Source: a virus (taxonomy: Duplodnaviria; Heunggongvirae; Uroviricota; Caudoviricetes). Taken from it: a DNA stretch of 15,956 nucleotides. This document shows positions 1 to 15,956 of the stretch, in pieces. The translations under genes were made by a program, and so were the position numbers. Each line of letters starts with the position of its first letter. Positions within the stretch are counted from its first letter, which is position 1. Below the pieces are notes generated by a model. It saw nothing but the letters and a program-made list of their open reading frames with translations. It did no database searches and was not told the DNA's origin. The stretch spans positions 1 through 15,956 of the IMG/VR virus record IMGVR_UViG_2778261418_000011. One strand, 5' to 3'.

Positions 1-344
1 GCATCCAGAAAACGGGCGTAAACCTTACGCCGGACCACCGTTCCGCCGACCAGACTCTGCAGATCTTCCGCCATCCCTGTGACCATGCCGTGCATATTAG
101 AGACTTTCAGCGTTGGCCTTGCACTGGCTCCTTTGCCGTTCATCTCAAATCCACTTCCCTGAATGGGATAGGCCTGATACTGCCGCCCCTGCCAGGTGAC
201 TGCTTCACCTTTTTCGTTCTGCTCATTACAGAAGAAATAACGATCTCCGCCGACCTCTGTCAGATCAATTTCCCAGAGCACGACCAGCGCGGATTGCTCC
301 GTTTTAGTGCACTCATTGAGTGTTTCCTGCTGTATATCCTGCAT
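1..344 (-). CDS. L: Minor tail protein L, N-terminal ~114 aa (gene continues past the window start)
   Basis: My own minus-strand translation from the ATG at 344-342 reads MQDIQQETLNECTKTEQSALVVLWEIDLTEVGGDRYFFCNEQNEKGEAVTWQGRQYQAYPIQGSGFEMNGKG..., which matches the N-terminus of lambda gpL as I recall it. The ATG overlaps the M stop codon (ATGA). It is absent from the ORF track because it runs off the window. Confidence 0.8.
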   Translation of the reverse strand, partial: MQDIQQETLNECTKTEQSALVVLWEIDLTEVGGDRYFFCNEQNEKGEAVTWQGRQYQAYPIQGSGFEMNGKGASARPTLKVSNMHGMVTGMAEDLQSLVGGTVVRRKVYARFLD

Positions 345-685
345 CAGTGAGTGACCTCTTCAAAGGTACAGTTAAAATCGGTATACATGGCATTATCCGA
401 AATGCTCCACTCCCTGCAGACAACCCGGACAGTCCTGTTGTGTTTTGGCGGACGCCACAAAAAAGCACGAATCCCGGCATGACGGGATAAAAAACTGTCC
501 AGCGCGGCACGGGAATATTCATCTGTGACACGAAATACCGGTTTAAACGTTTTCAGATCCGCATTCAGACCACCAGCCCGTCGCTGTTCATATCCGTCAC
601 CAAACTTTACCGTAATAACTGATGGCTTTCGTGTCGTCTCCATCCCCTCACGGGGGATCCAGTTAAAAACTTCAGGCTCAGGCAC
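344..685 (-). CDS. M: Minor tail protein M
   Basis: Track ORF 344..730 contains ...KPSVITVKFGDGYEQRRAGGLNADLKTFKPVF...FLWRPP..., matching lambda gpM (FGDGY, GLNANLKT, FLWTPP as recalled). The likely start is the GTG at 685-683, which sits 7 nt after a GGAGG and gives 113 aa; the ATG at 700 is an alternative. It overlaps the tape measure stop. Confidence 0.8.
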   Translation of the reverse strand: MPEPEVFNWIPREGMETTRKPSVITVKFGDGYEQRRAGGLNADLKTFKPVFRVTDEYSRAALDSFLSRHAGIRAFLWRPPKHNRTVRVVCREWSISDNAMYTDFNCTFEEVTH

Positions 686-3600: not shown

Positions 3601-3911
3601 GAGGCCTGCTTCAGACGGGCATTGACTGAATTCCACTCATCGGCGAGAGAAATAAGATGACCGGTAGCAAAAGCCCCGGCAAATGCCCCCGCCATGTTCA
3701 GTGCCGAAGATTTAGCTGTATTTATCTGATCCGTCACTTCTGCCAGTGCACGCCGCATTTCACGGGATGCAGCAGCGGACTGTCGGCTTCCATTCTGCAT
3801 GGTGCGGTAGTAATCCTGCCCCATACGCGAAGCCCGGGAGATCTCTGACTGAAATGACCGGGAGTTTGCCGAAATTTTAATAATCAGTTCACGTAATGTC
3901 GCCACACTCAT
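678..3911 (-). CDS. H: Tail tape measure protein (lambda gpH-like), 1077 aa
   Basis: Very long Ala/Gln/Glu-rich coiled-coil ORF with a central hydrophobic Gly/Ala segment and a C-terminus ending ...RRDGGLYSA, like lambda gpH (...RDGGLFS...). It lies between the G/T chaperone and M. The ATG at 3911 is only 1 nt from a GGAG; the GTG at 3905 has 7-nt spacing and may be the true start. Confidence 0.9.
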   Translation of the reverse strand: MSVATLRELIIKISANSRSFQSEISRASRMGQDYYRTMQNGSRQSAAASREMRRALAEVTDQINTAKSSALNMAGAFAGAFATGHLISLADEWNSVNARLKQASQSSDDFQASQRELMAISQRTGTAFSDNASLFARSAASMREYGYSSEEVLKVTEAISTGLKLSGASTAEASSVITQFSQALAQGVLRGEEFNSVNENGDRVIRALAAGMGVARKDLKAMADNGKLTADKVVPALISQLGALRDEYAAMPDTVSSSATKVENAFMAWVGGANEASGVTKTLSGVLNSIAGNIDTVATAAGALVAVGVARYFGNMASSAGSATAGLITAARNEVSLAEAQLRGTQIATARARAAVYRAQQAVVAARGTERQAAAEAKLTAAQASLTRNIAARTAAQTTLNNVTSVGSRLLSGALGLVGGVPGLVMLGAAAWYMMYQNQEQARESARQYAATIDEIRQKTSAMSLPEASDNEEKTRQALKEQNRLIDEQKSKIKSLQEKIAGYQYVLANPGWTTDNGFMINHMTSVKTVTEGLAEATNQLAVEQSRLTQMQGKAQSIQDVLAGLEERRVALIRQQAAEQNKAYQSLLIMNGQHTEFNRLLGLGNELLQQRQGLVNVPLRLPQATLDDKQQTALNNSERELALSRLKGEARERARLGYAADDLGFVGEAYQTARQNYINNSLDAWRNNQANKPKAHKKTEAEKTEDIYKRLIKQQKEQIALAGQNTELAKMKYQVSQGELSTLSEAQKKTLLQNAALIDQKKIREQLAAYESSLADSNASARASDEAQLLGYGEGSRMRERLQEMWSIRQTFEKKNNELLRQYQAGEIEEALWKQEKELNKKYLEERLSDQQDYYAKADALRNNWNAGLQEGLTNWADSATDYASQAADAVVSTMDGLVSNISDALAGNVVEWRNWGSSVLREVSKILMNAAIVNGLKSLSGAGGWLGTVGGWISGAVANAKGGVYTSANLSAYSNTIVDTPTYFAFAKGAGLMGEAGPEAIMPLTRAADGSLGVRAIGNVNGGGGFVYSPVYHISIQNQGSNGEIDARSARGLVDLIDSRVVSIMQSSRRDGGLYSA

Positions 3912-3921
3912 TCTCCGGACG

Positions 3922-3943
3922 AAAAAAAACCGCCGAAGCGGTT
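3922..3943 (-). terminator. Putative intrinsic terminator/attenuator between T and the tape measure gene
   Basis: Minus strand reads AACCGC-UUCG-GCGGUU followed by a U-run (plus-strand A8 at 3922-3929): a 6-bp stem with a UUCG tetraloop and U-tract, immediately upstream of the tape measure RBS. Confidence 0.35.
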
Positions 3944-3951
3944 ATGTTGAC

Positions 3952-4242
3952 TCACTGAGACACGGTTAAAAGCGCGTTTTCCAGCCCGGCAAATGGATCT
4001 GAGGCGCCTTCTGTCTGCTCCTGCTCCCACTGAAGAAGCACATCATTCAGTGGTACTTTAACCCCCTGCGCACCGTAAACAGCTGAAACAATCTGGGCAG
4101 CCCGGATATCAGCCCGTTCGTCCCCCAGCGGGCTGAACCTGTCAAATTCTGCCCACATCATGATTTCTGATGCGGACATTTCCCGGCGTAACTCTGACAA
4201 TGTGCGCCCCATCCTGAGCGCCAGCATCATCAGAAAACGCAT
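3952..4242 (-). CDS. T: Tail assembly protein T frame (C-terminal part of the G-T fusion made by a -1 frameshift)
   Basis: 96-aa ORF in the -1 frame relative to G, starting 12 nt after the G stop. This is the position and arrangement of lambda T; the slippery site is described below. Confidence 0.75.
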   Translation of the reverse strand: MRFLMMLALRMGRTLSELRREMSASEIMMWAEFDRFSPLGDERADIRAAQIVSAVYGAQGVKVPLNDVLLQWEQEQTEGASDPFAGLENALLTVSQ

Positions 4243-4253
4243 CCCCGGAAGTG

Positions 4254-4640
4254 CTACTTTTTTTTAACCTCTCCGGCATCACTGATCAGTTCCAGAGACT
4301 GGCGAAGAAGCCGGGCATGCACCGGGCCATACACGGCAATCACCTGTTCACGATCATCCTCTGAAAATACGGGTTGCAGCCCGGTATCACACAGAACATC
4401 AATGAACAGTTCAACGTCTGCCTCCAGATTTCGGCGGGCACGCTCTGCAACAGATGGCGATGTATCATCTTCCCTGGCTTTAACGATCTCCTGCCAGCGC
4501 AACCAGGCTTCTGCAGAAGGTTCCCGTAACACAACCGTTGCTCCTTCCCATTCAGGCACATCAACGGTTTTATGGCGAAACCCCGACATCGTTGCCAGTG
4601 CCAGATTACGGATATTTTTAGTCATCACATCCATCCTCAT
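4254..4640 (-). CDS. G: Tail assembly chaperone G
   Basis: Acidic ~125-aa ORF directly upstream of the tape measure and downstream of the major tail gene, ending ...GEVKKK on a slippery A-run. The TAATG overlap with the V stop supports the 4640 start; the ATG at 4625 has a better SD (GAGGA, 8-nt spacing). Confidence 0.8.
   Translation of the reverse strand: MRMDVMTKNIRNLALATMSGFRHKTVDVPEWEGATVVLREPSAEAWLRWQEIVKAREDDTSPSVAERARRNLEADVELFIDVLCDTGLQPVFSEDDREQVIAVYGPVHARLLRQSLELISDAGEVKKK
4257..4263 (-). other. Programmed -1 ribosomal frameshift site (slippery heptamer A AAA AAG)
   Basis: Minus-strand mRNA reads GTT AAA AAA AAG TAG. The heptamer A_AAA_AAG is in the zero frame at the last three codons of G, and a -1 slip continues as GTA GCA CTT CCG GGG ATG CGT..., which is the T frame. 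Confidence 0.75.
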
Positions 4641-5344
4641 TAACTGACGGTTACAGTGCAGGAAGTGGAGGTCACTTTGTTAACCGGGCTTGCTGAATCA
4701 GAAATCTCGCAGGTATACGCACCGGCATCACCGGATGCTGCTGATGCCTTACTGAACGTTGCCGCCGTCTGTCCGGAAACAGGAGAACCACCTTTCTTCC
4801 AGACATAAGAATAAGGCGGCACACCACCGGCAGCCTCAACCACCATTTCGAGTTTCGCTCCGGCAGAAACCTGCAGCGTGCTGTTTAAATCGACCTTCAC
4901 TTTCAGCGGTTCTGTCGTCAGCACAGGTTTACCTTTCAGGCGCAGGGAAAACGTTGCAGCCACAACACCATTGGTTCCTGCAGACCAGGTATGCTGACGC
5001 ACCTCTGCCATAAAGGTAAATCCGTTTCCTGACGGAAAAATAACTTTAAAGCCATACGTGGTGTCATTGTCATAGGCACTGCGCAACGCATTCTGGGCAG
5101 CATTGAGGTAAAAGTTGCCTGACATGGAAATCTCTGACGCGGCACCAAGACCGTTAATATTTTCCTGCTCAACAGAACACAGCGTGGTGACATCAATATC
5201 CTGCTTTTGTCCTGCGGTAAACTGCACCTCTTTGATTGTACAGCTCAGGCCAAGATAGCTGGCAGAATCCAGGGTTTCTGCTGTTACCGGTGCAGACGAA
5301 ATCATAATTTTCGTCAGTTGCGAACGCTCAAAATTAGAGGACAT
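4640..5344 (-). CDS. V: Major tail protein (lambda gpV-like) with C-terminal Ig-like domain
   Basis: 234-aa ORF in the V position. The C-terminal ~90 aa (..LKVKVDLNSTLQVSAGAKLEMVVEAAGGVPPYSYVWKKGG...YTCEISDSA...) looks like a bacterial Ig-like fold. RBS GGAG is 6 nt upstream of the ATG. Confidence 0.85.
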   Translation of the reverse strand: MSSNFERSQLTKIMISSAPVTAETLDSASYLGLSCTIKEVQFTAGQKQDIDVTTLCSVEQENINGLGAASEISMSGNFYLNAAQNALRSAYDNDTTYGFKVIFPSGNGFTFMAEVRQHTWSAGTNGVVAATFSLRLKGKPVLTTEPLKVKVDLNSTLQVSAGAKLEMVVEAAGGVPPYSYVWKKGGSPVSGQTAATFSKASAASGDAGAYTCEISDSASPVNKVTSTSCTVTVS

Positions 5345-5361
5345 ACTCGTCTCCTGAAAAT

Positions 5362-5382
5362 AAAAAAAACCGCCAGCGGCGG
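5362..5382 (-). terminator. Putative intrinsic terminator/attenuator upstream of the major tail gene
   Basis: Minus strand reads CCGCC-GCU-GGCGG followed by U8 (plus-strand A8 at 5362-5369), between the stop of the upstream gene (5405) and the V RBS. Confidence 0.35.
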
Positions 5383-5404
5383 GTGGGTAAAATCATTAAC
5401 GAAC

Positions 5405-5749
5405 TCAGGCTATTACCTGAAATTCAAGCGTGGCTCTGCTCAGACGGGATTCAGGATCATAACCCTGCGTTTTAGAAATAACGGAGGGTGCAAGTTCCCT
5501 CACCGCATCAAGCGCCTGTTCCCGGATATCATCTGCGTCATCAGGCACCGTTGCCCAGACATCGATCTGCACGGTAATTCTGGATTCAGCCTGACCATCA
5601 AGCACATCAGACGCCGTGTCAGACACCACAGAAAACACCAGCCACGGCGGAGATACCGCAGGTTTTCCCTCCGTCAGCGGGACCACATAAGGATAAACCT
5701 GTCCTCCGGCCAGTTGAGACAGCAGGGAATACAGTGTGGCTTCCCTCAT
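5405..5749 (-). CDS. Tail completion / tail terminator protein (lambda gpU position; family not recognised with certainty)
   Basis: 114-aa ORF between the gp10-like gene and the major tail gene, with an ATGA overlap to the upstream stop. Assignment rests on gene order; no obvious similarity to lambda U in my recollection. Confidence 0.55.
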   Translation of the reverse strand: MREATLYSLLSQLAGGQVYPYVVPLTEGKPAVSPPWLVFSVVSDTASDVLDGQAESRITVQIDVWATVPDDADDIREQALDAVRELAPSVISKTQGYDPESRLSRATLEFQVIA

Positions 5750-6195
5750 TTACTTAAGACCTCATCAATAGCCTGATTCATTCGCTGTATGGCAACCTGC
5801 GCCGCCAGCTCCTCTGTCGTATCGAAAGCCGGGCGAATGAATGGATGCGCGGGCATGTTTATCGTTCCCAGCTCCACAAAGCGCCAGTAAAACGCATTTC
5901 GGGGATCGCTGGCTTTCATGCTGTTATCACTGTTTCCGGTTCGCAGGTTCCGTCCGCGAATATGGATACCAGAAATAATTTCCCCCCGACGCTTTGAGCG
6001 CTGAGTCAGAACAACCACATTTTTCTTCAGTTTTCCGGTTCGCTCCGGCGCACGTTCAACAACCGCATCCCGCATAACTTCAGCACCGGCACGGGTGGCA
6101 TCGCGCAGCACCTTATTGTTTTCTGCCCTGCTGAGCGTCTCCAGATCCCGTGCAATATCCGCCAGACCTGAAAAATCAAGACTGAAATCCATCAC
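5746..6195 (-). CDS. HK97 gp10-family head-tail protein
   Basis: 149-aa ORF containing ...NMPAHPFIRPAFD..., which I recall as characteristic of the HK97 gp10 family. Sits in the head-tail joining block. Confidence 0.7.
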   Translation of the reverse strand: MMDFSLDFSGLADIARDLETLSRAENNKVLRDATRAGAEVMRDAVVERAPERTGKLKKNVVVLTQRSKRRGEIISGIHIRGRNLRTGNSDNSMKASDPRNAFYWRFVELGTINMPAHPFIRPAFDTTEELAAQVAIQRMNQAIDEVLSK

Positions 6196-6530
6196 ACATT
6201 CCCCTTCAGACTGCAGAGCATTTCAAGCCGGGTGGCGCGTGCATCCGGTATTGGTGGCCCTTCTATACCAAGAGTGACCCCTTTAAATGCACCGGTCAGC
6301 ACTTTCAGACGTGAAGTCGCTGTCACATCGCGCCGAAATCGCATCCAGACTCTGACCGTAGCCTGAGCGGTTTCTGCACCTCCTGATATTCTCTCCCTCC
6401 CGCTGATCCCCTTAACTTCTGCCCATACGGTTGCCCCCTCCGTCATTGTCTCCACCGGATGCCCTGACGGAGAACGGACGGTGGTGACATTCAGAATAGT
6501 TACGCGATCACGTAATCTGCCCGCCTGCAT
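6192..6530 (-). CDS. Head-tail adaptor / head closure protein
   Basis: 112-aa ORF downstream of the gp6-like connector, with a strong RBS (AGGAGG) 4-5 nt upstream of the ATG. Assignment by size and position in an HK97-type head module. Confidence 0.65.
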   Translation of the reverse strand: MQAGRLRDRVTILNVTTVRSPSGHPVETMTEGATVWAEVKGISGRERISGGAETAQATVRVWMRFRRDVTATSRLKVLTGAFKGVTLGIEGPPIPDARATRLEMLCSLKGNV

Positions 6531-6538
6531 GGTTCCTC

Positions 6539-6856
6539 CTACAAAGGAATAAAACGATAAGGCTCCAGCAGAGAAGAAAAACCAAACGGGACTGGTGCCT
6601 TGCTGACATCTGAGGAATTTTCCCGGTTTTCGTACCAGTGTCCGACCAGCAACATGAGCGCCAGCAAAACATCATCAGCTATAAGCACCCCGTCAGGATC
6701 ACCTTCCGGCACCGTCTCCTCATAAAGCTTACGGTTGATAAAATTTTCTGCCTTGCGGCAGGCAGCCCGGAAATACAGCATCAGTAACTCATCATCAGTT
6801 GCATCATCTGTATCAATACGGCACTGCGCCCTGAGTTTTTCCACTATTGCTGCCAT
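6539..6856 (-). CDS. Head-tail connector protein (gp6-like)
   Basis: Track ORF 6539..6901 would overlap the capsid stop. The ATG at 6856 (MAAIVEKLRAQ...) has AGGAG with 6-nt spacing and is the likely start. Acidic ~105-aa protein immediately after the capsid gene. Confidence 0.65.
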   Translation of the reverse strand: MAAIVEKLRAQCRIDTDDATDDELLMLYFRAACRKAENFINRKLYEETVPEGDPDGVLIADDVLLALMLLVGHWYENRENSSDVSKAPVPFGFSSLLEPYRFIPL

Positions 6857-6900
6857 CAGAAACTCCTGCCCGCAACACTGTGCGGGCATAAAAAACCGCA

Positions 6901-8127
6901 TTACGCAGCGGCTTTCTGGCGGGTTGCGGCCCCAATTTTCATCAGCTTAATCGCCTGAGAATCCACCAGCATACCGCCGGTTCGCTTGGTGGTGTAAAAA
7001 CCCACAAACGGTTTATTGGTGTACGGATCGCGCAGGATACGGGTACCGATGCGATCAACGATGGTATAGCCACGTTTGAAGTTACCAAACGCAATGGCTT
7101 TTGCATCGGCAGCAATATCCGGCATCTGTTCATTCTCAACGATGCCATACCCTGCCAGAGAAGAAGGCTGACCCAGCTCAATACCCGGACGCCACAGATA
7201 ATTTCCGTCGTTATCCTTCAGCAGACGAATGGCAAACAGGCTGCTGTTGTTCATCATAAACTTCGCGCCGCTGCGGTGCGCCTTGCGCAGGGTGTAAATC
7301 AGTTTAATGATCGCATCGGCAGTCACGCCGGAAGCCGCACCGGAAGCAATGTGCTGAAGTTTGCCAAACGCACGGGTCTTGTCATCTTCATCGGTGGACT
7401 CGTAAGCCAGAAAACCTTTTGGTTTTTTGCTGCCGTCGCCACTGGTAAAGGCAATTTCTTCCTGCTCGGCAAATTCCAGCGCCAGCTCACTGTTGATCCA
7501 GTCTTCCACATTGAAGAAAGCATCATCGAGCATTTTCTGGGTGGCCTGCGGGTTGCCGTAGATTTCCCCCATAAAGGGTTCAATCAGACCCAGTTTTGAG
7601 GTGGCGGTTTCCGGACGAGCATCCGTTTCCCCCACCCATCCGGACGTTGTGCCGCCCAGATTCACCAGTTTTTTATAATCCGAGCCACCGAGGGTGATCA
7701 CAGTGGCTTCCTGGCGCATCACCACCTCATCTTTCAGCAGCGTCAGGATGGTACGATCCAGTTCTTCCGGAATGGCATAACCACCATCTTCATCATTACC
7801 TACCTGAAGCGCCTTACGTTCAAGTTCACGCAGACCGTCTTCACGCCCCTTGCGCATAAATCCGATAAACGCTTCTTTGTGTTCACCGGCAACTTTATTT
7901 TGCGTGCCGCCTGCCGGACGCTTGATGTCTGCCAGCTCTTTTTCCAGGTCGCTTTTCAGGTTCTCCAGCTCGCTGATTTGCCCGTTCAGGCTTTCCACCT
8001 GTTCGGCCAGCTTGCCTTTTTCCTGTTCGATCGCGTCAATGCGCTTGTCGTTTTTTGCCTTAAAATCGTCAAACTTCTGCTGCAAATCCTGCGCGACCTG
8101 TTCAACGTCTTTAATATCAACAGCCAT
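6901..8127 (-). CDS. Major capsid protein, HK97 family, with N-terminal coiled-coil delta (scaffolding) domain
   Basis: 408-aa ORF whose N-terminal ~100 aa is a heptad-rich coiled coil (..QKFDDFKAKNDKRIDAIEQEKGKLAEQVESLNGQISELENLKSDLEKELADIK..) followed by a capsid body. It sits directly after a prohead protease with no separate scaffold gene, as in HK97. Confidence 0.9.
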   Translation of the reverse strand: MAVDIKDVEQVAQDLQQKFDDFKAKNDKRIDAIEQEKGKLAEQVESLNGQISELENLKSDLEKELADIKRPAGGTQNKVAGEHKEAFIGFMRKGREDGLRELERKALQVGNDEDGGYAIPEELDRTILTLLKDEVVMRQEATVITLGGSDYKKLVNLGGTTSGWVGETDARPETATSKLGLIEPFMGEIYGNPQATQKMLDDAFFNVEDWINSELALEFAEQEEIAFTSGDGSKKPKGFLAYESTDEDDKTRAFGKLQHIASGAASGVTADAIIKLIYTLRKAHRSGAKFMMNNSSLFAIRLLKDNDGNYLWRPGIELGQPSSLAGYGIVENEQMPDIAADAKAIAFGNFKRGYTIVDRIGTRILRDPYTNKPFVGFYTTKRTGGMLVDSQAIKLMKIGAATRQKAAA

Positions 8128-8140
8128 TATTTACTCCTGA

Positions 8141-8791
8141 TTAAAATTTAAGATTTTTCAGTGCATTCAGTGCGGCATCCACATCCTCAGCATCACGCAG
8201 GGATAAAGCGCCATATCCCCCGGCCATGAATGCTTTGGCCTGGGTTCGCGAGAGTCCAACATCGCGCAAGACCCGCTCAATAATTTTCTGATCAGGGATC
8301 TCCCCACGCGCCAGCGCATTTTTCACATCGCTGATGCGTGCTTCATCATTGGAAGGAAACGTCACCAGACTGACCTCCCACAGGTCGATCTCTTTCAGCA
8401 GGAATACCCCTTTTTCCCGGTCGTACTCCCAGTCTTTCAGGATGTAGCCAATAGAAAGGCCGGTTAAAGAACCGGCCTTCATATGGGCATGTGCACGTTT
8501 TGCCAGGGGATCATCATCAATGAGTAATCGTCCCCTGACATAAAGCCCGACATCATCTTCTTTCATTTCGGTGTACACACCGATGGGCTCATCCATGCGG
8601 TGCTGCCAGAGCAACGCAGGCAGCGCCTTTTTTTCGCTCCATTTCTGGAGTGTTGTGGTAAAGGCTCCGGGGACCACCACATCATCGTGGCTGTCCTTAA
8701 CACCAAAAACAGAACCGTAACCTTCAAATTCCCCGGAATCACTGACGGATTTCAGGTTCAGCGGTATATCAAGACGCTGTTTTGTCTGCAT
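8141..8791 (-). CDS. Prohead protease, HK97 family
   Basis: Track ORF 8141..8821 lies between portal and capsid. The likely start is the ATG at 8791 (MQTKQRL...), with GGAGAG 5 nt upstream; it overlaps the portal 3' end. Confidence 0.85.
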   Translation of the reverse strand: MQTKQRLDIPLNLKSVSDSGEFEGYGSVFGVKDSHDDVVVPGAFTTTLQKWSEKKALPALLWQHRMDEPIGVYTEMKEDDVGLYVRGRLLIDDDPLAKRAHAHMKAGSLTGLSIGYILKDWEYDREKGVFLLKEIDLWEVSLVTFPSNDEARISDVKNALARGEIPDQKIIERVLRDVGLSRTQAKAFMAGGYGALSLRDAEDVDAALNALKNLKF

Positions 8792-10010
8792 CTCCACTCT
8801 CCTTTTTCTTACCGTTGTCATCGCCAGCAGAGGGACTGGTGGTCATGTTCATCGGTGTCAGATACACATCACCGCCCGGTCGGGGATTCATATCTTCCAG
8901 ATCACGGCAGTCATTAGGGGAATAAATCCCCCAGTTGATCCCCGTGGCATACGCTTCAAAGCGGGATTTCATGTCGCCACGCAACAATGCTCCGGCATTA
9001 AACTTGGCGTAAAATTTTCCCTGCTTGCTCTCCCTGACCAGCCCTGTATTGATCCGCTGCTCAATACGGGTCAGATACGGCACAAGGGAATAGTTAATGA
9101 AACCAAGCCCCAGCTCTTCAATATTGTTGAAGGTGGCGCGATCGGTGTTCTGCACCATATGCAGCGGCACGCGGAACAGGCGACAGATTTCTTCCAGCTG
9201 AAACTTGCGGGTTTCCAGGAACTGGCTGTCCTCGGCATTCAGTGCCACCGTTTTCCAGTCCAGCCCCATTTCCAGAATCATCGGACGATGAGAGTTTCCC
9301 AGCCCGACATGCCGTTCCTCAAAATCCTTTTTGATACGCGCATAAGCCTGGTCAGAAAGTTGTTGATCCGTACGCAACACACCGGATGTTACCGCGCCAT
9401 TGCCAAACAATCTGGCACCATGCTCCTCGGTTGCCGCTGCCAGTGAAATGGCCTCGCGCGCATATGCAATGGGATTCAGACCGACAAGTCCATCCAGCGT
9501 CAGGGTACGCACATGCCAGATTTCATTCTGGGTCAGCACATCCACGGAACCATCCGGAAACGTCACCTGATAAACCGGCTGCCACTGGCTGTTCAGCTTC
9601 GGTTCCACACAGCCCGGATCTATCGGAAGAAGCTCCACCACTTCCCCCAGTGCCTTTACCTTGTAGGCGTAAAAATTACCCCGCAGACACAGGCAGACGA
9701 TAACCAGTTCCCAGAATTCCTGCGGCGTCATGTAGCCATTGGGTTTTGCCGAAATCAGCTTATGCAGCCGTTCATCCACCGCCCGTGTTTTAAGGGTGCC
9801 GCTGATTTTGTAGAGACTGCAGGGCAGCATACCAACAGACTCAGCCAGCACCCTGACGCAGGAATAGACCGCCGTCAGCCGCATGGCCCGCTGGCTGCTG
9901 ATCCGCTTTCCGGTATAGGTGTCGTATGACAACCCCAGCTCTTCCGCAAGCATCCCGGGCGTTGTGACGGGGGTGTTATTTTTGCGTTGAAAAAGCCCCT
10001 GGAAAAACAT
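8769..10010 (-). CDS. Portal protein, HK97 family
   Basis: 413-aa ORF directly downstream of large terminase and upstream of the protease, with an acidic C-terminus. RBS GGAGGTGA precedes the ATG. Confidence 0.9.
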   Translation of the reverse strand: MFFQGLFQRKNNTPVTTPGMLAEELGLSYDTYTGKRISSQRAMRLTAVYSCVRVLAESVGMLPCSLYKISGTLKTRAVDERLHKLISAKPNGYMTPQEFWELVIVCLCLRGNFYAYKVKALGEVVELLPIDPGCVEPKLNSQWQPVYQVTFPDGSVDVLTQNEIWHVRTLTLDGLVGLNPIAYAREAISLAAATEEHGARLFGNGAVTSGVLRTDQQLSDQAYARIKKDFEERHVGLGNSHRPMILEMGLDWKTVALNAEDSQFLETRKFQLEEICRLFRVPLHMVQNTDRATFNNIEELGLGFINYSLVPYLTRIEQRINTGLVRESKQGKFYAKFNAGALLRGDMKSRFEAYATGINWGIYSPNDCRDLEDMNPRPGGDVYLTPMNMTTSPSAGDDNGKKKESGDADKTAS

Positions 10011-10192
10011 TACTCACCTCCGGAGGCGACCCGGTGACCGCGATCGAGATAACGCGCAACCAGCCACGACCAGCACAGACACAGCGCCCCGACAACAACA
10101 AAACCTGCCGGGGGATAAATCAGCCAGGCGCCATACGCCAGCAAAAGCGCCCCCAGCACGCCCACCAGTGGCGTGAGAATTATCAGAAACAT
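10010..10192 (-). CDS. Small hypothetical membrane protein (60 aa, two predicted transmembrane helices)
   Basis: [63 protein letters not shown] fills the 193-bp gap between terminase and portal. GAGGG lies 5 nt upstream of its ATG, and its TAA overlaps the portal ATG (TAATG). Confidence 0.45.
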
Positions 10193-10203
10193 AATGCCCT
10201 CGG

Positions 10204-11961
10204 TTAAAGCGAGCGAATACCAACGCTGACCAGATGCTCAGACAGATCCGGCTCCGGTTCACCGCCATTGACCAGCATCCGGCTCATTGCTGTAAACATC
10301 GCAACAGGACCGTCGATTTTGGCTTCAGGCGTGGATTTGTTCGGGAAGATATTGTCGTTTTTGTCCGGTTTTACCGTAACGTTAGACATCATCCAGTTCA
10401 TGACCGGGTGATTGCTGTGGTGAAAACGCCCGGCATAGACCAGTGATTCCGTTTCCTTCATAGCCTCTGACAGATTGCGGACCGTCTGCGGAACTTCCAC
10501 CAGCGGTATCCCTTCTTCAGCCAGAGCCAGACTGAACTGCATTGCACTCCACGGGTCAAATCCCAGCTCCCTCAGGTTTTCACCACCAATCCATTCCAGT
10601 AAGTCACTTTTTATCTGAGCATGATCGATAACATCACCATCCGTCAGGATGAGCTTATCCATCTCCGCCCATTTCCGGTAAAGTTCTGCCTGCTGCCGCG
10701 AGCACCGCTCCAGCCGTCCTTCCGGGAGCCAGAATTTAAAATCAGCATGAACATGTCCGTTATCGGTTCGCCAGAGTTTTGCCGCCGCACAGATATCAAT
10801 CTTATGAGCAAGGTCGACGCCGACCCACATGGGATACGTTTTAAGCTCATGTCGTGGGGCAATATATTCGCATTTCTCCCACTTAATCATGTCCATCCAG
10901 GCAGACTCTGCTGTTACCCACACATTCATGTGTTTGGTAAAAAAATTCACCCGCGCAGAGACCTGTTCTTTCGCTTTTTTCGCCAGACGACGCAGATCAT
11001 CCCAGCGTTTACAGATGCCCAAGCCGGGATTCGCTTTCTGCCAGACCGTTTCATCAAACGGATCATCTCCCTCATCGAGCGTGTAAATAATCGCAAAGTA
11101 GGAATCATCTTTTACCGCGCCCTCCACGTCGCTGTTATAGCCTCGCAATACCTTGATGGCGTAATCGCGTTGCTCGTAACAAATCCCTTCCTTGTTAAAG
11201 CCCGCCGTGGTGATACCAAATAACAGGGACTGCAGACGGGCACCGGTTGCCGTTTCCAGAACGTCCCACACGTCGCGGGTTTTATGTGCATGCAGCTCAT
11301 CAATAATGGCGCAGTGGATGTTCAGACCGTCCAGGTTGTTTGCATCCGAGGAAAGCGGTTCAAATTTTGATGCGCTCTGCTCCTGGTAAATCGCCAGCTT
11401 GTTGAAATCAAACAATCGCCCGAGTGTCGACCGGGCTTTTCTGACCATATTTTTGGCGTCTTCAAACACAATTCTGGCCTGGTCACGCGTGGTTGCGGCT
11501 GAATACACCTCAGCACCGCCTTCACCATCTGCCCCCGTCATATACAGGCCGATACCCGATGACAGGGTTGATTTTGCGTTTTTACGGGCGACTTCGTTGT
11601 ACGCCGTACGGAACCGGCGCACCATCACCGGACGTCCGCTGCCATCGCTGCGCATGACAACTTCCCCGGTCTCTTCATTAACCAGCGGAATGACAAAACC
11701 AAAAATATTAATGAGGATAAATACATGCCAGTCCATCAGTTCAATGGGCTGGCCTGCCAGCGCCCCTTTTACATGGGGCACAAATTTGTAGAAATTCAGG
11801 ATGTGCTGCGCACGGGGTTCACTGAAATAAATCCCCCGCTCTTCGCCGTACTTCAGATCATCAAGAAAACGCTGGCAGGCCAGACGGACAAATTCGCCAG
11901 CGACAATTTCTCCTGCAACAACACGTTCGGCGTAGCGGATCCCGTCAGCCACTTTTGCCAT
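10204..11961 (-). CDS. Terminase large subunit
   Basis: 585-aa ORF in the canonical position between small terminase and portal, with an ATGA overlap to the small-subunit stop. Length and composition fit an ATPase-plus-nuclease large terminase. Confidence 0.9.
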
Positions 11962-12443
11962 CAGTCTCTCGCTTTTAAAAGTTCCGCCAGCGGATCAACA
12001 TCATCCGGTCCGGCGGTATTTACTTTCGCCCGGCTTGCCGGTGACATACCAAACTCTGCAAGCATCGCCCGGATCCGCTTCCAGGCATCCGCTTTCATCG
12101 CAGCAGCCGGGTGTGCCTTAATCAGCACATCACCGTTCTGCGTTTCCGTGCGGTAGGTATAACCCTCAACATCGAGTATTTCGCAGTGATGCCGGTATTC
12201 GGTGTAGGCTTCCACCAGCAACTCGAGTGCACGCGCATCAAGCTGAGAAATGATCCCTTCCGCATTCAGTTCTTCCGCCATTCGCCTGAACCAGTACTTC
12301 CCCTGCGCCCCTAAATGTTGCGGAATTTTAGGGAGACCTTTTTCGTCCTTTTTAGCGGTTTTTTTGGGGTCTTTAACGGGGCGCTTTGATGGGTTGCCTC
12401 GTATCAAATGCAGGCGTGGCGGGGTTTTCGGGGGTCCTGACAT
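11961..12443 (-). CDS. Terminase small subunit
   Basis: 160-aa ORF with a basic N-terminus (..KTPPRLHLIRGNPSKRPVKDPKKTAKKDEKG..) immediately upstream of and overlapping the large terminase. Resembles the P27-type small terminase as I recall it. Confidence 0.75.
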   Translation of the reverse strand: MSGPPKTPPRLHLIRGNPSKRPVKDPKKTAKKDEKGLPKIPQHLGAQGKYWFRRMAEELNAEGIISQLDARALELLVEAYTEYRHHCEILDVEGYTYRTETQNGDVLIKAHPAAAMKADAWKRIRAMLAEFGMSPASRAKVNTAGPDDVDPLAELLKARD

Positions 12444-12590
12444 AATCGGTTTTACCTATCAATCGTTTAATCGCATTCCCAAAAAAAAGTTTTCGAACCT
12501 GCGGCGATGCGAGGAAAGGTCAGGCGGCGGTACTGAGCAGCCAGGGCTGCAGGGATTTTACCCGCCCCTCCCCACAAGTGAGAATAATTA

Positions 12591-12941
12591 TCACCTGATT
12601 CGTTCGCGCGCTGTTTTTGCTTTGTGGCAGGGCCAGCACAGACTCTGCAGGTTGCTGTCTGCATCTGTTCCGCCATGTGCTTTCGGGATGATGTGGTCGA
12701 CAGTTTTCGCCTCGCGCACCACACCGACACGCAGACACAACTGACACAGACCTTTATCGCGCTTCAGAATACGGGCTCGAATCACCGTCCATTTTGAGCC
12801 ATAGCCACGCTGGTGGCGGCTCAGTCCGCGCTGGTGCTGCACCCAGCCTTCACCCCGATGTTTATCGCAGTAGCCAGAGCTGTCTGTTGTTGTGCCTGCG
12901 CAACCTCGCTTACGGCATGCGCGGGGGATTCGTGATGGCAT
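12591..12941 (-). CDS. HNH endonuclease (phage packaging-associated)
   Basis: C-terminal motif ...VDHIIPKAHGGTDADSNLQSLCWPCHKAKT plus an N-terminal Cys cluster. The likely start is the ATG at 12941 (MPSRIP...), with AGGAG at 6-nt spacing. Sits upstream of the terminase genes as in HK97-like phages. Confidence 0.85.
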   Translation of the reverse strand: MPSRIPRACRKRGCAGTTTDSSGYCDKHRGEGWVQHQRGLSRHQRGYGSKWTVIRARILKRDKGLCQLCLRVGVVREAKTVDHIIPKAHGGTDADSNLQSLCWPCHKAKTARERIR

Positions 12942-13023
12942 TGGAATCTCCTTAATACCGGCATTATCGCAGCCCCTCACTGAAGGGCTGCTGTAATGCC
13001 TGTTACTCAGTAACAACTGCGCC

Positions 13024-13299
13024 TTACGGTAATTTCATGAAGGCAAATACCGGACAGCCCGGATGACGAGCATCTTCTGTTGCTTCCAGCATTGATTCAC
13101 CAAACCACTCCGTCGTGGCACGACCATCAGCAGCTTTGTAGTGGAGCAAGTACTGGTTTTCGCCATCCGCATACTGAGCGCGAGCTTTAACCTCACCCCA
13201 TTCATCACTGATGCGTACTTCCACCAGTTGTGACAGTTCAAACTTAAACGGAATAGACGCGACACCAACTAAAATCGGTTTATTTTCTGTTTTTTCCAT
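13024..13299 (-). CDS. Hypothetical protein (~92 aa), function unknown
   Basis: Track ORF 13024..13350. The only SD (AGGAG) precedes the ATG ATG pair at 13302/13299, so the true product is probably MEKTENKPILVGVASIPFKFELSQLVEVRISDEWGEVKARAQYADGENQYLLHYKAADGRATTEWFGESMLEATEDARHPGCPVFAFMKLP. No family recognised. Confidence 0.5.
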   Translation of the reverse strand: MEKTENKPILVGVASIPFKFELSQLVEVRISDEWGEVKARAQYADGENQYLLHYKAADGRATTEWFGESMLEATEDARHPGCPVFAFMKLP

Positions 13300-13473
13300 C
13301 ATCGTCTCCTGATATCGAAGCCCGTCGCCGCACCGGGCGCTGATCAACATTTGAGTATTCGCGGCGAAAGAAAGAATTTATTTTATTGAATGACCGCAAA
13401 CACAGAATTTCATGCTTTCCGGGCGCTGACGCATCCTTCATTTTTCAGCAAAATATTCTGCTCTTACGGGCGA

Positions 13474-13656
13474 TCAGTTCTGCAGACACTGCCGAACACC
13501 GTCAACAATTTCGCAGACCTGAGAAGCCGTATCGAAAAGCTGGCGCGCCTTATCCAGGCTGACGCATCCCACCAATAAAAAAGGCACCAGTATCGCTACC
13601 AGTGCCCATTTCGCCGCCGTTCGCGGCATTCTGTGTGTCCAGTGTTTTCGCGCCAT
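13474..13656 (-). CDS. Small putative lipoprotein (60 aa; lipobox LVGC, ~30-aa mature peptide with 3 Cys)
   Basis: MARKHWTHRMPRTAAKWALVAILVPFLLVGCVSLDKARQLFDTASQVCEIVDGVRQCLQN has a basic n-region, a hydrophobic h-region and an L-V-G-C lipobox. Its start lies 1 nt after the stop of the upstream 37-aa ORF. Confidence 0.45.
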   Translation of the reverse strand: MARKHWTHRMPRTAAKWALVAILVPFLLVGCVSLDKARQLFDTASQVCEIVDGVRQCLQN

Positions 13657-13657
13657 A

Positions 13658-13771
13658 TCACCACCAACGCACAGCCCAAATCAGAACAGCGACCGCCACA
13701 AGGCGAATTGCAAAGGCCGCAGCCCTTGTCAAATCAAGGCTCGCGGGAGTTTCCATTTCAATACCTTTCAT
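13658..13771 (-). CDS. Small hydrophobic peptide (37 aa, C-terminal transmembrane segment)
   Basis: My own translation of an ORF below the track's size cut-off: MKGIEMETPASLDLTRAAAFAIRLVAVAVLIWAVRWW. GAGG lies 9 nt upstream of the ATG. Positions checked codon by codon. Confidence 0.25.
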   Translation of the reverse strand: MKGIEMETPASLDLTRAAAFAIRLVAVAVLIWAVRWW

Positions 13772-13863
13772 AATGGACAACCTCAAAAAGAATCTTTTAT
13801 ACTTTCCCACGAGGATTTTCTCCCTACTCACTAATCACAATTTCCCCTTTGACGTGAAAACTA

Positions 13864-13896
13864 AAAACCCCGGACTGTTCCCCCAGCCGGGGTTTT
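13864..13896. terminator. Bidirectional intrinsic terminator downstream of the endolysin
   Basis: Perfect 10-bp stem AAAACCCCGG / CCGGGGTTTT (13864-13873 and 13887-13896) with a 13-nt loop. A/T-rich flanks on both sides give a U-tract in either orientation. Begins 8 nt after the endolysin stop. Confidence 0.55.
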
Positions 13897-13903
13897 GTTT
13901 TAC

Positions 13904-14287
13904 TTATCGCTTCAGCTGAAAGTGAGGTCCGTCTTTCAGCGTTTTCCAGTCCCCGCCCCATTCGATAGCGATCCCCAGCTCTGCGGCAGCCTGCTTAAAT
14001 GCCTGTGCGATTTTCTCGTACAGAGGCCACTCCCATGACACCTGGCTGCCGATGTAGGCCACAACATCCACCGCATCACCGGTCAGGTGGCGGCTGTTCA
14101 TGGTCTGGCTTTTCCCTTCCGCAACCAGCTGTTTCTGGCGATACTTACTGCGCAGGCCTTCCGTAATACCGAAATCAACCTCCGTCAGCTCCAGCGCACG
14201 GCGAACTACAGCAACCAGCTGTGGTTTGACACCCTCCAGATTTTTTTCACTGCGACGGCTGAATCTGAATTTACCCGGCATATTCAC
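13904..14287 (-). CDS. Endolysin, peptidase M15 family (L-alanyl-D-glutamate peptidase type), no signal-anchor
   Basis: 127-aa ORF with the metal-ligand pattern ...SRHLTGDAVDV... and ...DGPHFQL, typical of M15 zinc peptidase endolysins as I recall. Hydrophilic N-terminus. ATGA overlap with the upstream holin-like gene. Confidence 0.8.
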   Translation of the reverse strand: MNMPGKFRFSRRSEKNLEGVKPQLVAVVRRALELTEVDFGITEGLRSKYRQKQLVAEGKSQTMNSRHLTGDAVDVVAYIGSQVSWEWPLYEKIAQAFKQAAAELGIAIEWGGDWKTLKDGPHFQLKR

Positions 14288-14559
14288 CTCAACAATGGAA
14301 AGATTTTTGTGACGTTCCCGCGTGCGCGTATCACCAGCACGCAGAACAGCAGGTTAAAAAACACTTCCAGCCAGCCCGTTGCTAACGGGCGACCACACAG
14401 ATAGCTGAGGGGCGCAAAGGCATACAGCAGCATCAGCAGCCAGGCCAGCCATGACATCAGCGGTTTATGTCTGGAATCACGGCGACGATAAAAAAAGAGC
14501 GTCAGCACGATAACCGTGCATAACGCCACATTCAGCAATCCGGGAAGGTTACTTAACAT
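14284..14559 (-). CDS. Holin-like membrane protein B (91 aa, about three transmembrane helices); possible holin or antiholin
   Basis: Track ORF 14284..14613. The likely start is the ATG at 14559 (MLSNLPGLLNVALCTVIVLTLFFY...), with GGAGGAGG at 5-nt spacing. It lies directly upstream of the endolysin. Confidence 0.55.
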   Translation of the reverse strand: MLSNLPGLLNVALCTVIVLTLFFYRRRDSRHKPLMSWLAWLLMLLYAFAPLSYLCGRPLATGWLEVFFNLLFCVLVIRARGNVTKIFPLLR

Positions 14560-14941
14560 TGCCGCCTCCTCCACCCCGCAGGCGGGAAAACAGGACGGAC
14601 ACCAGCGATGCAATATCCTGTTGGTGGATAAACGACAGAATCTTTACCGACACCACCGATACCAGCACCGCACACAGTGCATCCGCCGATGTACCGTCAT
14701 AACCTGTTTTTGCTGCAATCCAGGCTGACAGCACGCGCGCTCCCAGCACGCCGACAATGAACGACACCAGAAAATGTGCCGCCACCCGCCAGGCTGAAAG
14801 CGCCTGCGGCATCGTTGCCACAAACAACGCTCCGGCGAACGCCCCAAACACAATCCCGAAATCCGTCCCGGTAAACAGTCCGAATACCGTCGCCCCGCCG
14901 AGCGCAGCGGCTGTACCAGAACCGGATAAGGGTTCAGACAT
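14549..14941 (-). CDS. Holin-like membrane protein A (130 aa, several Gly/Ala-rich transmembrane helices)
   Basis: First gene of the lysis cassette, with GGAG 8 nt upstream of the ATG. Its Gly-rich C-terminus (RLRGGGGGNVK) is encoded by the SD of the next gene. Confidence 0.6.
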   Translation of the reverse strand: MSEPLSGSGTAAALGGATVFGLFTGTDFGIVFGAFAGALFVATMPQALSAWRVAAHFLVSFIVGVLGARVLSAWIAAKTGYDGTSADALCAVLVSVVSVKILSFIHQQDIASLVSVLFSRLRGGGGGNVK

Positions 14942-15183
14942 ACTTTTTCTCCTGTAAAGAAAAAAGGGCCACCAGCAGCCCGCAAAAAAACGCCCACCAA
15001 AGGCACCCGCAGATGCCTTTGGTGTGGAGTTATTTGATGTGCGCCGGTCGTGGCGCGAGGAAGTGAAATAAGACTTACCTGAAATTAAGGTTAATCTTAT
15101 GGTTTAAACCATTTTTAATGCTTAGTAATATGAACTCGTCCCCAGAAGGGGCCAATACTTATTCTTCTTCACGGACTTTGTCC

Positions 15184-15215
15184 CGCGGCGTTAATCCGAC
15201 AGCCGCGCTTTTTTT
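15184..15215 (+). terminator. Plus-strand-oriented terminator-like hairpin
   Basis: CGCGGC (15184-15189), 12-nt loop, GCCGCG (15202-15207), then C and T7 (15209-15215). Confidence 0.4.
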
Positions 15216-15250
15216 GCGCCATATTCATCGCTGACTTATATGGCATTGCC

Positions 15251-15286
15251 ACACGGACATTATCAGTGTCCGTGTTTTCTTTTTTT
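15251..15286 (+). terminator. Plus-strand-oriented intrinsic terminator
   Basis: Perfect 9-bp stem ACACGGACA / TGTCCGTGT with a 7-nt loop, followed by TTTCTTTTTTT. Confidence 0.55.
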
Positions 15287-15297
15287 GAATTCAGAAT

Positions 15298-15324
15298 AAA
15301 AAAAACCGCCCAATGGAGGCGGTT
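15298..15324 (-). terminator. Minus-strand intrinsic terminator between the tRNA array and the lysis cassette
   Basis: Minus strand reads AACCGCC-UCCAUUG-GGCGGUU followed by U8 (plus-strand A8 at 15298-15305). Confidence 0.6.
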
Positions 15325-15688
15325 GGTCAATGCATGAGATCAATCATTTTTATTGTAATAGAAATCGAGGTGTCGGGTGCCTCCCGAAATATCCATCCCT
15401 ACAACAGATATTGTGATTCCCCGTTAAACCACTATATAAACCACCCTCGCACTGAGGAACACCTCTGCGGTGCTGTTTACAACACCAGAATGATGCTTCA
15501 CCGACCCTGCCAGGAAATACAAAATCTCCACCGATAATGCATCATTCTGCTGCCGTAAAAATTCAGCACTGAGGCTACACCCGACCTCAAATCATAGCCA
15601 GAGAACAGAATACCATTTAAACACAATCCGCTCCCACGTAATAAAAAATACGCCAGTGCTGTAATACAATAAGGCTTATTACAAATGT

Positions 15689-15763
<75 letters not shown>

Positions 15764-15766
15764 ATA

Positions 15767-15842
<76 letters not shown>

Positions 15843-15844
15843 AC

Positions 15845-15921
15845 TGGACCGCCACCGGGGACTCGAACCTCGCACACTTAACTTAAAGGGTTGACGCTCT
15901 TTCCTGATGAGCTAGTGGCGA
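15845..15921 (-). pseudogene. Degenerate tRNA-like gene (possible decayed tRNA-Arg-like member of the array)
   Basis: A 77-nt cloverleaf can be drawn (acceptor stem with U1-G72, D-arm GCUC/GAGC, T-loop UUCGAGU, encoded CCA). However the anticodon loop is CCUUUAA (C where U33 is normally invariant), and there are A-C mismatches in the anticodon and T stems. Confidence 0.4.
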
Positions 15922-15922
15922 T

Positions 15923-15956
15923 TGGTGGCCCTTGCTGGATTTGAACCAGCGACCTG
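15923..15956 (-). tRNA. tRNA 3' fragment (T-arm and acceptor end; resembles E. coli ileX-type tRNA-Ile2), truncated by the window edge
   Basis: Reverse complement ...GGTCGCTGGTTCAAATCCAGCAAGGGCCACCA gives a T-stem GCUGG/CCAGC, T-loop UUCAAAU, acceptor 3' strand and CCA. The anticodon is outside the window. Confidence 0.5.

Follow-up and report, generated by a model that had tools for sequence, protein, structure and literature searches.

The window analysed here, a stretch of 15,956 nucleotides that comprises positions 1 to 15,956 of the IMG/VR virus record IMGVR_UViG_2778261418_000011, was found to correspond to the late-gene region of a lambdoid prophage of Escherichia coli (phiP27-like, of the phiP27/HK97 type). 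Comparative sequence evidence supports the view that a set of hairpins in the spacer between its tRNA and holin genes marks an independent plus-strand transcription unit, which is predicted to give a small RNA (sRNA) of about 78 nt. In the reading that we prefer (probability of about 0.6), this RNA is made and would act in trans by base pairing, with a 3' scaffold joined to a 5' stretch that chooses the target. An earlier note on this DNA had described three terminator hairpins at this site, two plus-oriented and one minus-oriented, and had offered as one explanation a small plus-strand non-coding RNA made from roughly 15030-15290. All three hairpins were found at the coordinates claimed by use of fold energies and a terminator scan, and the RNA explanation is supported by the comparative evidence, with its predicted start moved from 15030 to near 15138. 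The parts of the plus-strand unit are as follows.

15103-15131, plus strand: putative sigma-70-type promoter of the small RNA, read from the sequence (-35 TTTAAA at 15103-15108, 17-nt spacer, -10 TAATAT at 15126-15131).

15138-15215, plus strand: predicted small RNA of about 78 nt, based on folding, covariation and a covariance model termed R1.

15216-15286, plus strand: degenerate, 5'-truncated tandem copy of the 3' scaffold of the RNA, based on a match to R1 and ending in terminator T2 (tail 15276-15286).

The first plus-strand hairpin, T1, consists of a stem at 15184-15207 followed by a C and a run of seven uridines (U7, 15209-15215), with a fold energy of -12.0 kcal/mol (z -2.2). This hairpin was overlooked by the terminator scan solely for its 10-nt loop, as the scan was limited to loops of 8 nt. 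The second hairpin, T2, has an 11-bp stem at 15251-15275 and a tail, UUUCUUUUUUU, that extends to 15286 (-14.6 kcal/mol, z -6.4); it was the strongest plus-strand terminator-like site detected in the window by the scan. The opposing minus-strand terminator at 15324-15304 (-11.5 kcal/mol, z -3.2) was found in relatives to have an invariant stem and a freely variable loop. Over the whole window, 33 terminator-like sites were detected compared to 17.0 +/- 4.3 in shuffled sequences, with six of the 33 on the plus strand. Since diverged copies have retained the hairpins of the spacer through compensatory changes, these hairpins are regarded as beyond chance.

The predicted RNA is composed of a 5' hairpin (15138-15153), a single-stranded C/U-rich stretch of 19 nt that is the putative seed (AAUACUUAUUCUUCUUCAC, 15154-15172), a small hairpin (GGACUUUGUCC, 15173-15183) and T1 (15184-15215). 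Among 32 aligned sequences, a CUUAUU(C/A)UUCUUCA stretch, the small hairpin, the T1 stem and the T1 loop (UUAAUCCGAC) were invariant or nearly so, and across the family the single-stranded stretch was 19-26 nt in length. The named structure was paired in 95.7% of the cells of this alignment, compared to 38-49% when the 3' partners were slid, and a second, broader alignment gave the same picture (93.9% of cells). Fully compensated pairs were observed both in the 5' hairpin (UA in 18 and CG in 14 sequences) and in T1 (CG in 20 and UA in 12). G·U pairs were found at two positions (UG in 15/32 and 29/32 sequences), where the minus strand would have A·C, and the U-tracts that follow T1 and T2 are present on the plus strand only. 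Since the stems covary and the G·U pairs would be lost on the minus strand, the folded molecule is concluded to be a plus-strand RNA. The covariance model R1, which was built from the RNA, scored 15138-15215 at 93.6 bits. These comparisons establish the structure of the element, its conservation and its strand.

A weak candidate promoter (TTTAAA, 17 nt, TAATAT) had been noted earlier near 15099-15127. This candidate was found to be present and conserved, its actual position being about 4 nt further right. In the 32 distinct homologues, most positions of the -35 hexamer and the first T, A2, A5 and T6 of the -10 hexamer were invariant, as was a G located 7 nt downstream of the -10 hexamer. The promoter and the +1 nucleotide were also kept in 10 E. 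coli prophages of 72-99% identity. A diverged member, of the type found at locus L117, has other upstream sequence yet displays TAAAAT at an equal distance from its 5' hairpin.

We examined how the unit is distributed and what surrounds it in other genomes. In an alignment of the spacer to E. coli relatives sharing 72-99% identity, conservation was higher over the block at 15040-15340 than in its flanks; identity over the tRNA-holin spacer was 83% for E. coli W (ATCC 9637; NC_017635 1518360-1519165). The block was carried by 301 of 5426 complete E. coli genomes (about 5.5%). Family members were detected in at least 119 IMG/VR contigs, and a conserved 31-nt pattern matched 102 contigs. When this strict pattern was used to search other genera, with one genome per species, only Escherichia ruysiae matched, in a search that diverged copies could escape.

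About 140 copies were collected, of which 113 were classified for orientation and neighbours, and by this analysis the unit was found to have a fixed position and orientation. Every copy with an identifiable neighbour was antisense to that neighbour. On the 3' side of the unit were tRNAs (in two loci, a methyltransferase gene was the nearest match), and on the promoter side, at about 220-250 nt to the next start codon, was either a holin gene (Phage_holin_8, EssD or class II) or a TerB/DUF3927 moron. The exceptions were loci L008 and L058, which have the sRNA STnc100 and a tRNA on the promoter side. In L008 (E. coli FDAARGOS_1295, 327-958), the unit directly follows the antiterminator gene Q, with STnc100 (129 bits) and then tRNA-Ile on its promoter side; from this layout, the unit is concluded to move independently of the holin.

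A scan with the T1 scaffold alone recovered the same 3' scaffold joined to other single-stranded stretches (CUUAUGAUUCUUCAU, CUUAUGAGUCUUCAU, AAUGUAAUUAAGUCAAACUUCAU, ACUAAUCCUUCUUCGC and CCUGAAAUUUUUCAACUAUCUAUCAC), all in the same synteny, with the CCUGAAAUUUUUCAACUAUCUAUCAC type having a different promoter that includes TAAAAT. The CUUAUUCUUCUUCAC, CUUAUGAUUCUUCAU, L119 and L117 types represent seed classes on the common scaffold. At least six seed types were found on one 3' scaffold, the scaffold being nearly invariant and the 5' stretch being exchanged between copies. Seed type was independent of the kind of neighbouring gene, such that one seed adjoins three different holins or TerB.

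The segment that follows T1 differs between classes of copies. In the window, its match to R1 (15218-15284) was weak, at 19.7 bits and an E-value of 0.012 in 73 kb, and a weak match was detected at the equivalent place in L001, L008, L144 and L145. In class 2 copies, which are the commonest, the segment keeps GGACGUUGUCC followed by CACGAG..CUCGUG and U7, the same small hairpin and terminator as are found at the 3' end of the RNA itself. As the class 2 segment repeats this 3' end, T2 is interpreted as the terminator of a decayed, promoter-less tandem copy; its stem covaries between classes. T2 would catch read-through from T1 and give an isoform of about 147 nt. In class 2 copies the T1 tail is weaker, with a poor U-tract (CUACUUUUC), and U7 is located at T2; the long form may be dominant in this class, as judged from the poor U-tract of T1. 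At class 3 loci the promoter, RNA and T1 are present, T2 and the STnc100-like piece that lies opposite are absent, and a different minus-strand terminator, along with a tRNA, lies directly opposite T1. The class 3 loci, being devoid of T2, therefore define the core unit as extending from promoter to T1. Copies of the UTAK-3 type have lost the T1 stem and U-tract.

The sense-strand features that surround the unit are listed next.

14549-14941, minus strand: holin gene (Phage_holin_8; Pfam PF16931, E 6e-23; 'putative holin' in RefSeq).

14966-15024, minus strand: two tandem sense terminators, with the small-RNA promoter on one side and the ribosome-binding site of the holin gene on the other (scan and fold).

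15294-15324, minus strand: intrinsic terminator of the sense (phage-direction) transcript, with an 8-bp stem at 15324-15304 and a U-rich tail to 15294.

15294-15493, minus strand: structured sense RNA segment that is weakly STnc100/PasD-like (Rfam, motif), the convergent partner of the plus-strand RNA.

15689-15921, minus strand: cluster of tRNA-Lys, tRNA-Thr and tRNA-Gly genes (ARAGORN and Rfam), on the 3' side of the small RNA.

The Pfam-supported open reading frames (ORFs) of the window (holin, holin, M15 endolysin, TerS, TerL, portal, prohead protease, capsid and tape measure) are all on the minus strand, and a 99% identical RefSeq prophage is annotated alike, in agreement with the earlier observation that all protein genes lie on this strand. 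The holin gene at 14549-14941 is the first of the lysis cassette, and the small-RNA gene points away from it. In the 99% identical prophage of E. coli ECL27977, the upstream order is antiterminator Q, a short ORF, a DNA methyltransferase and four tRNAs, and about 750 bp between the tRNAs and the holin are devoid of annotated genes; this spacer is a moron site, and the small-RNA unit is located within it. Phage phiP27, which we take to have stx2e (Shiga toxin 2e) in its tRNA-holin spacer, was found by sequence comparison to be devoid of the small-RNA block. In strain P13-6, a terB/DUF3927 moron is inserted in the spacer just upstream of the two holin-proximal sense terminators, and the LT-IIb toxin prophage SerU-LTIIb has the small-RNA block at the same spot.

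Three sense terminators are located between the tRNAs and the holin gene, at 15324-15304, 15024-14995 (13 bp, -24.1 kcal/mol, z -5.5) and 14981-14966 (weaker), of which the tandem pair at 14966-15024 is kept as far as phiP27. From its sequence, the first of these should stop the sense transcript that arrives from the tRNA side, and the set of three fits lysis genes that are accessible solely to antiterminated polymerase. The sense segment 15493->15294 scored 19.1 bits (E 0.09) with the Rfam model of STnc100 (RF02076), below the gathering score of 47, and has the motif CGGGAGGCACCCG in common with STnc100 and PasD. The sense stretch of about 400 nt from tRNA-Gly to the minus-strand terminator (15296-15690) folds at -135 kcal/mol (z -5.1 compared to shuffles), includes a hairpin of about 90 nt (15562-15473) along with CGGGAGGCACCCG, and is kept in relatives; it may represent either a sense sRNA of the STnc100/PasD type that has diverged or a tRNA trailer that is structured.

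When relatives and classes were compared, no conserved ORF was detected across the small RNA on either strand, and an indel in the 5' hairpin of relatives shifts the reading frames. A 133-aa 'hypothetical protein' of ETEC1732 was rejected as a real gene; it reads straight through all three terminator hairpins. Public 'hypothetical proteins' that overlie the spacer (L003 2278-2676; L005 606-731; L145 1406-1531 and 1639-1956) differ in strand and frame, and look like annotation artefacts overlying non-coding RNA genes.

We compared the RNA to known prophage RNAs, namely AsxR and AgvB (Rfam RF02703 and RF02702; EcOnc01-03), PasA and PasC (EcOnc51 and EcOnc52 of enteropathogenic E. coli (EPEC) E2348/69), and STnc100/PasD (EcOnc27 and EcOnc13). 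In O157 prophages, the moron site downstream of PR' is known to harbour convergent sRNA pairs (Tree et al. 2014, PMC4104026). We checked this layout in Sakai Sp5, where STnc100 (3923-4128, plus strand, 208 bits) and AsxR (4182->4130, minus strand, 88 bits, which served as the positive control for the AsxR model) end two bases apart in a pair that is located after stx2B. Similarly to AsxR/AgvB, the RNA of the window is found in the moron site 3' of PR', is antisense to the late genes, is part of a convergent pair with back-to-back terminators, and combines a conserved 3' part with a variable 5' part. By contrast, its length is about 78 nt compared to 51-60 nt for AsxR/AgvB, it has its own 5' hairpin and an extra small hairpin, and its 3' sequence is unrelated to the conserved 3' region of about 42 nt that in AsxR/AgvB follows a variable 5' region of 14-18 nt. 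The Rfam models of AsxR and AgvB gave no plus-strand match at E<=10 in 14900-15700, and hence none at gathering score. The sole plus-strand Rfam match at this cut-off in the same region was a chance match to a miRNA, and at gathering score nothing was detected in the window beyond the three tRNAs. Minus-strand matches to AgvB (14.3 bits compared to a gathering score of 56, over the sense terminator), isrK and OmrA-B were set aside as generic terminator matches. R1 gave no match in the AsxR locus or the Pas loci. Members of the AsxR/AgvB family antagonize a core-genome sRNA by target mimicry; on inspection by eye, the RNA of the window displayed no complementarity to the seeds of common core sRNAs.

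PasA and PasC are located immediately upstream of the holin in convergent orientation; they have been validated by Northern blotting and bind Hfq (Pearl Mizrahi et al. 2021, PMC8550237), with PasA detected as an 85-nt major form and a 236-nt minor form that ends at a second terminator (PMC8550237 table S6). Their convergent arrangement beside the holin operon and their dependence on Hfq are documented in the same study and in Zhu, Shabalina & Storz 2026 (doi 10.64898/2026.05.13.724894). The RNA of the window is similar to PasA/PasC in being about 80 nt, convergent to phage genes, directly upstream of a holin-lysozyme operon and often near TerB/DUF3927, and similar to the Pas variants in having a common 3' end and differing 5' ends. 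Short and long forms with tandem terminators, as observed for PasA, are predicted for the RNA of the window, the second terminator coming in both cases from a related tandem copy. When the spacer was compared by blastn (word size 7) to the Pas loci PasA-PasD (L010-L013, E2348/69), no match had an E-value below 0.16, and the query coverage of >75% by which Zhu et al. assign Pas membership with blastn was not reached. Whereas Pas RNAs are enriched in EPEC and enterohemorrhagic E. coli (EHEC), the listed carriers of the window RNA are largely livestock, enterotoxigenic (ETEC), environmental and commensal. The likeness to STnc100/PasD (similar length, a terminator that faces the antisense RNA, and CGGGAGGCACCCG, at a score below gathering) concerns the sense segment 15493->15294 on the opposite strand, not the plus-strand RNA.

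Full-text searches of the literature with six 15-16-mers of the seed and scaffold, on both strands and in DNA and RNA spelling, gave no match. The seed sequence is absent from the supplements of Tree 2014, and comparison with the unnamed EcOnc candidates of the Sakai prophages covered Sp5 only. Structural features of the Hfq-dependent sRNA class were all found in the unit: its own promoter, an unstructured seed, and an intrinsic terminator that has a U-tract of at least six (U7) and is preceded by a further stem-loop. The lambda OOP and P22 Sar RNAs are short constitutive phage cis-antisense RNAs with intrinsic terminators that are transcribed against a phage operon, and the genes that they overlap, within the coding sequence or at the ribosome-binding site, are defined ones (cII, ant). 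Unlike OOP and Sar, the RNA of the window overlaps a non-coding leader only and belongs to a family with swappable seeds. Thus, as judged by Rfam, BLAST and the covariance model, the RNA is distinct from the named families and adds a new sequence family to a kind of prophage element that is already known.

In the preferred reading, the promoter at 15103-15131 would direct transcription from about G15138, and T1 would end most transcripts at about 15215 to give the RNA of about 78 nt. The scaffold would serve as a protein-binding or stability module, with Hfq as the obvious candidate, and the variable stretch would be a seed for pairing in trans to other RNAs; we infer this division of labour from a scaffold that is nearly invariant and a stretch that is exchanged. 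Together with the opposing minus-strand terminator and sense RNA, the plus-strand RNA would form a convergent sRNA pair of the kind typical of the moron site downstream of PR'. Transcription of the RNA, its exact ends, binding by a chaperone and action in trans are all inferred from sequence. Insulation of the late operon from antisense transcription, the other role that the earlier note had considered for the plus-strand hairpins, is not wrong but appears secondary, in that T1 and T2 would stop the RNA's own transcription from running antisense into the tRNA genes.

Several points weigh against this reading. The evidence for the locus is all comparative. The homologues are closely related, such that few of the compensatory events are independent, and the single-sequence fold of the 78 nt is only modestly better than shuffles (z -2.2), with the reverse strand folding about equally (-23.1 kcal/mol compared to -22.9 kcal/mol for the RNA strand). 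The promoter scored 8/12 to consensus, a weak match that is under the 9/12 cut-off of the scan. Invariance of the T1 loop UUAAUCCGAC is unusual in a plain terminator and hints at a role outside the simple seed model. Lastly, no convincing trans target within the phage was detected by a duplex scan.

The start region of the holin was considered as a trans target, as 12 of 13 positions could be paired by hand alignment with GGAGAAAAAGUAU, but this site ranked 12th in the duplex scan at -13.6 kcal/mol. Because of this rank, and because the same seed is found beside three different holins or TerB, the holin target was rejected as a specific prediction. Besides the RNA's own locus, the best duplexes within the phage were with the start regions of an ORF at 6195 (-19.8 kcal/mol) and of the tape-measure gene at 3911 (-17.6 kcal/mol), scored as 6188-6227 and 3901-3940 on the minus strand. 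These are a weak lead, as C/U-rich seeds pair with Shine-Dalgarno regions generically.

Of the alternatives, a role in cis survives best, and we regard it as possible but unlikely. The RNA is perfectly complementary to the tRNA-holin leader of the late or read-through transcript, and in a lysogen this pairing, along with convergent transcription, would serve to eliminate or block any stray sense transcript bound for the lysis genes. Once the prophage is induced, the promoter would be overrun by Q-modified polymerase, and the small RNA would be titrated by late RNA, which is then abundant. Consistent with this proposal are the uniform antisense orientation, the constant spacing from the next start codon (about 220-250 nt), and the perfect self-site, which is by far the best duplex at -33.7 kcal/mol. 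The three sense terminators that flank the unit fit a need to silence the lysis genes, and the absence of a link between seed type and neighbour type fits the locus itself as target. The invariant T1 loop starts with UUAA and may suit a kissing contact, the YUNR-type motif (UUAA) being typical of antisense kissing loops. A cis role, however, leaves unexplained why a near-invariant 3' scaffold is combined with a 5' stretch that is swapped wholesale, and the unit of L008 is located between Q and STnc100/tRNA, far from any holin. Moreover, AsxR, AgvB and PasA, the RNAs in analogous positions, have trans partners that they act on or bind (PMC4104026, PMC8550237). The cis and trans roles are compatible and not exclusive.

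More speculatively, and with tentative confidence at best, the unit may be a lysogeny-coupled switch in which the modular RNA, with one fixed protein-binding scaffold and exchangeable seeds, would be produced solely during silence of the late operon and would reprogram host or prophage transcripts. Upon commitment to lysis, Q-dependent late transcription would both titrate the RNA and shut its antisense-embedded promoter. A second, kissing-loop contact to the late RNA would be provided by the invariant T1 loop, and seed swapping between prophages would let phages retarget host regulation.

It is improbable that the locus encodes no functional RNA, with the hairpins being mere insulators or recombination leftovers and the promoter-like hexamers being coincidental. 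Such an explanation would be in line with the weak consensus match of the promoter, with the exchange of modules at this hot spot (TerB moron, different holins, different tRNA sets), and with the copies of the UTAK-3 type, which are devoid of the T1 stem and U-tract. It does not account for promoter hexamers, +1 G, 5' hairpin and scaffold that are better conserved than their flanks, nor for compensation in the 5' hairpin, and no other source of plus-strand transcription that would need insulation downstream was apparent, the Pfam-supported ORFs being all on the minus strand. Somewhat more doubtful still is that the conserved structure belongs to the minus strand, as a processing or stability element of the late leader or a signal to antiterminated polymerase. 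The reverse complement folds about equally well (-23.1 kcal/mol) and there is strong structure in the adjacent sense RNA (z -5.1), but the G·U pairs (15/32 and 29/32 sequences) would become A·C mismatches, the U-tracts are confined to the plus strand, and the conserved hexamers and +1 G make sense on the plus strand only. A type I toxin-antitoxin system, in which the plus-strand RNA would be the antitoxin to a small toxic peptide of the minus strand, is highly improbable, since the 25-codon minus-strand ORF that overlaps T1 (MPYKSAMNMAQKKRGCRINAAGQSP) is not conserved (its start region at 15216-15250 is replaced in class 2, a stop appears and hairpin indels shift the frame) and its peptide is not hydrophobic, such that no conserved small hydrophobic ORF was found.

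If made as predicted, the RNA represents an unannotated, conserved small-RNA gene in about 5.5% of complete E. coli genomes, at a locus that annotation pipelines mask with spurious 'hypothetical proteins'. One scaffold with at least six seeds provides a natural series for studying how prophage sRNAs evolve new targets, and the same series can be used to ask whether convergent placement against the late operon couples sRNA activity to lysogeny. The finding is not a new principle; rather, the picture known from AsxR/AgvB and Pas is widened from EHEC/EPEC to phiP27-like, DLP12-like and LT-II prophages.

Other observations were made in the neighbourhood of the unit. The 3' end of the sense RNA (15296-15345, minus strand; GAUUGAUCUCAUGCAUUGACC and the terminator) resembles AsxR (L143 4130-4182; GAGUAUCUCAUGCAAUUGCCC and a terminator). 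This AsxR-like end is sense to the late genes, whereas AsxR is antisense, and the Rfam AgvB model gave only 14 bits; the likeness could be due to chance or to recombination of a module. The tRNA-Lys(UUU) gene (15845-15921, minus strand) scored 31.9 bits on the Rfam tRNA model and has several non-canonical pairs, compared to 64-66 bits for tRNA-Thr and tRNA-Gly, and its slot is occupied by tRNA-Arg in some relatives. In phage SerU-LTIIb (L144, KU052038), the small-RNA unit is located upstream of holin1a, with a duplicated tRNA arrangement and a partial holin gene downstream, which points to repeated recombination at the tRNA-holin site.

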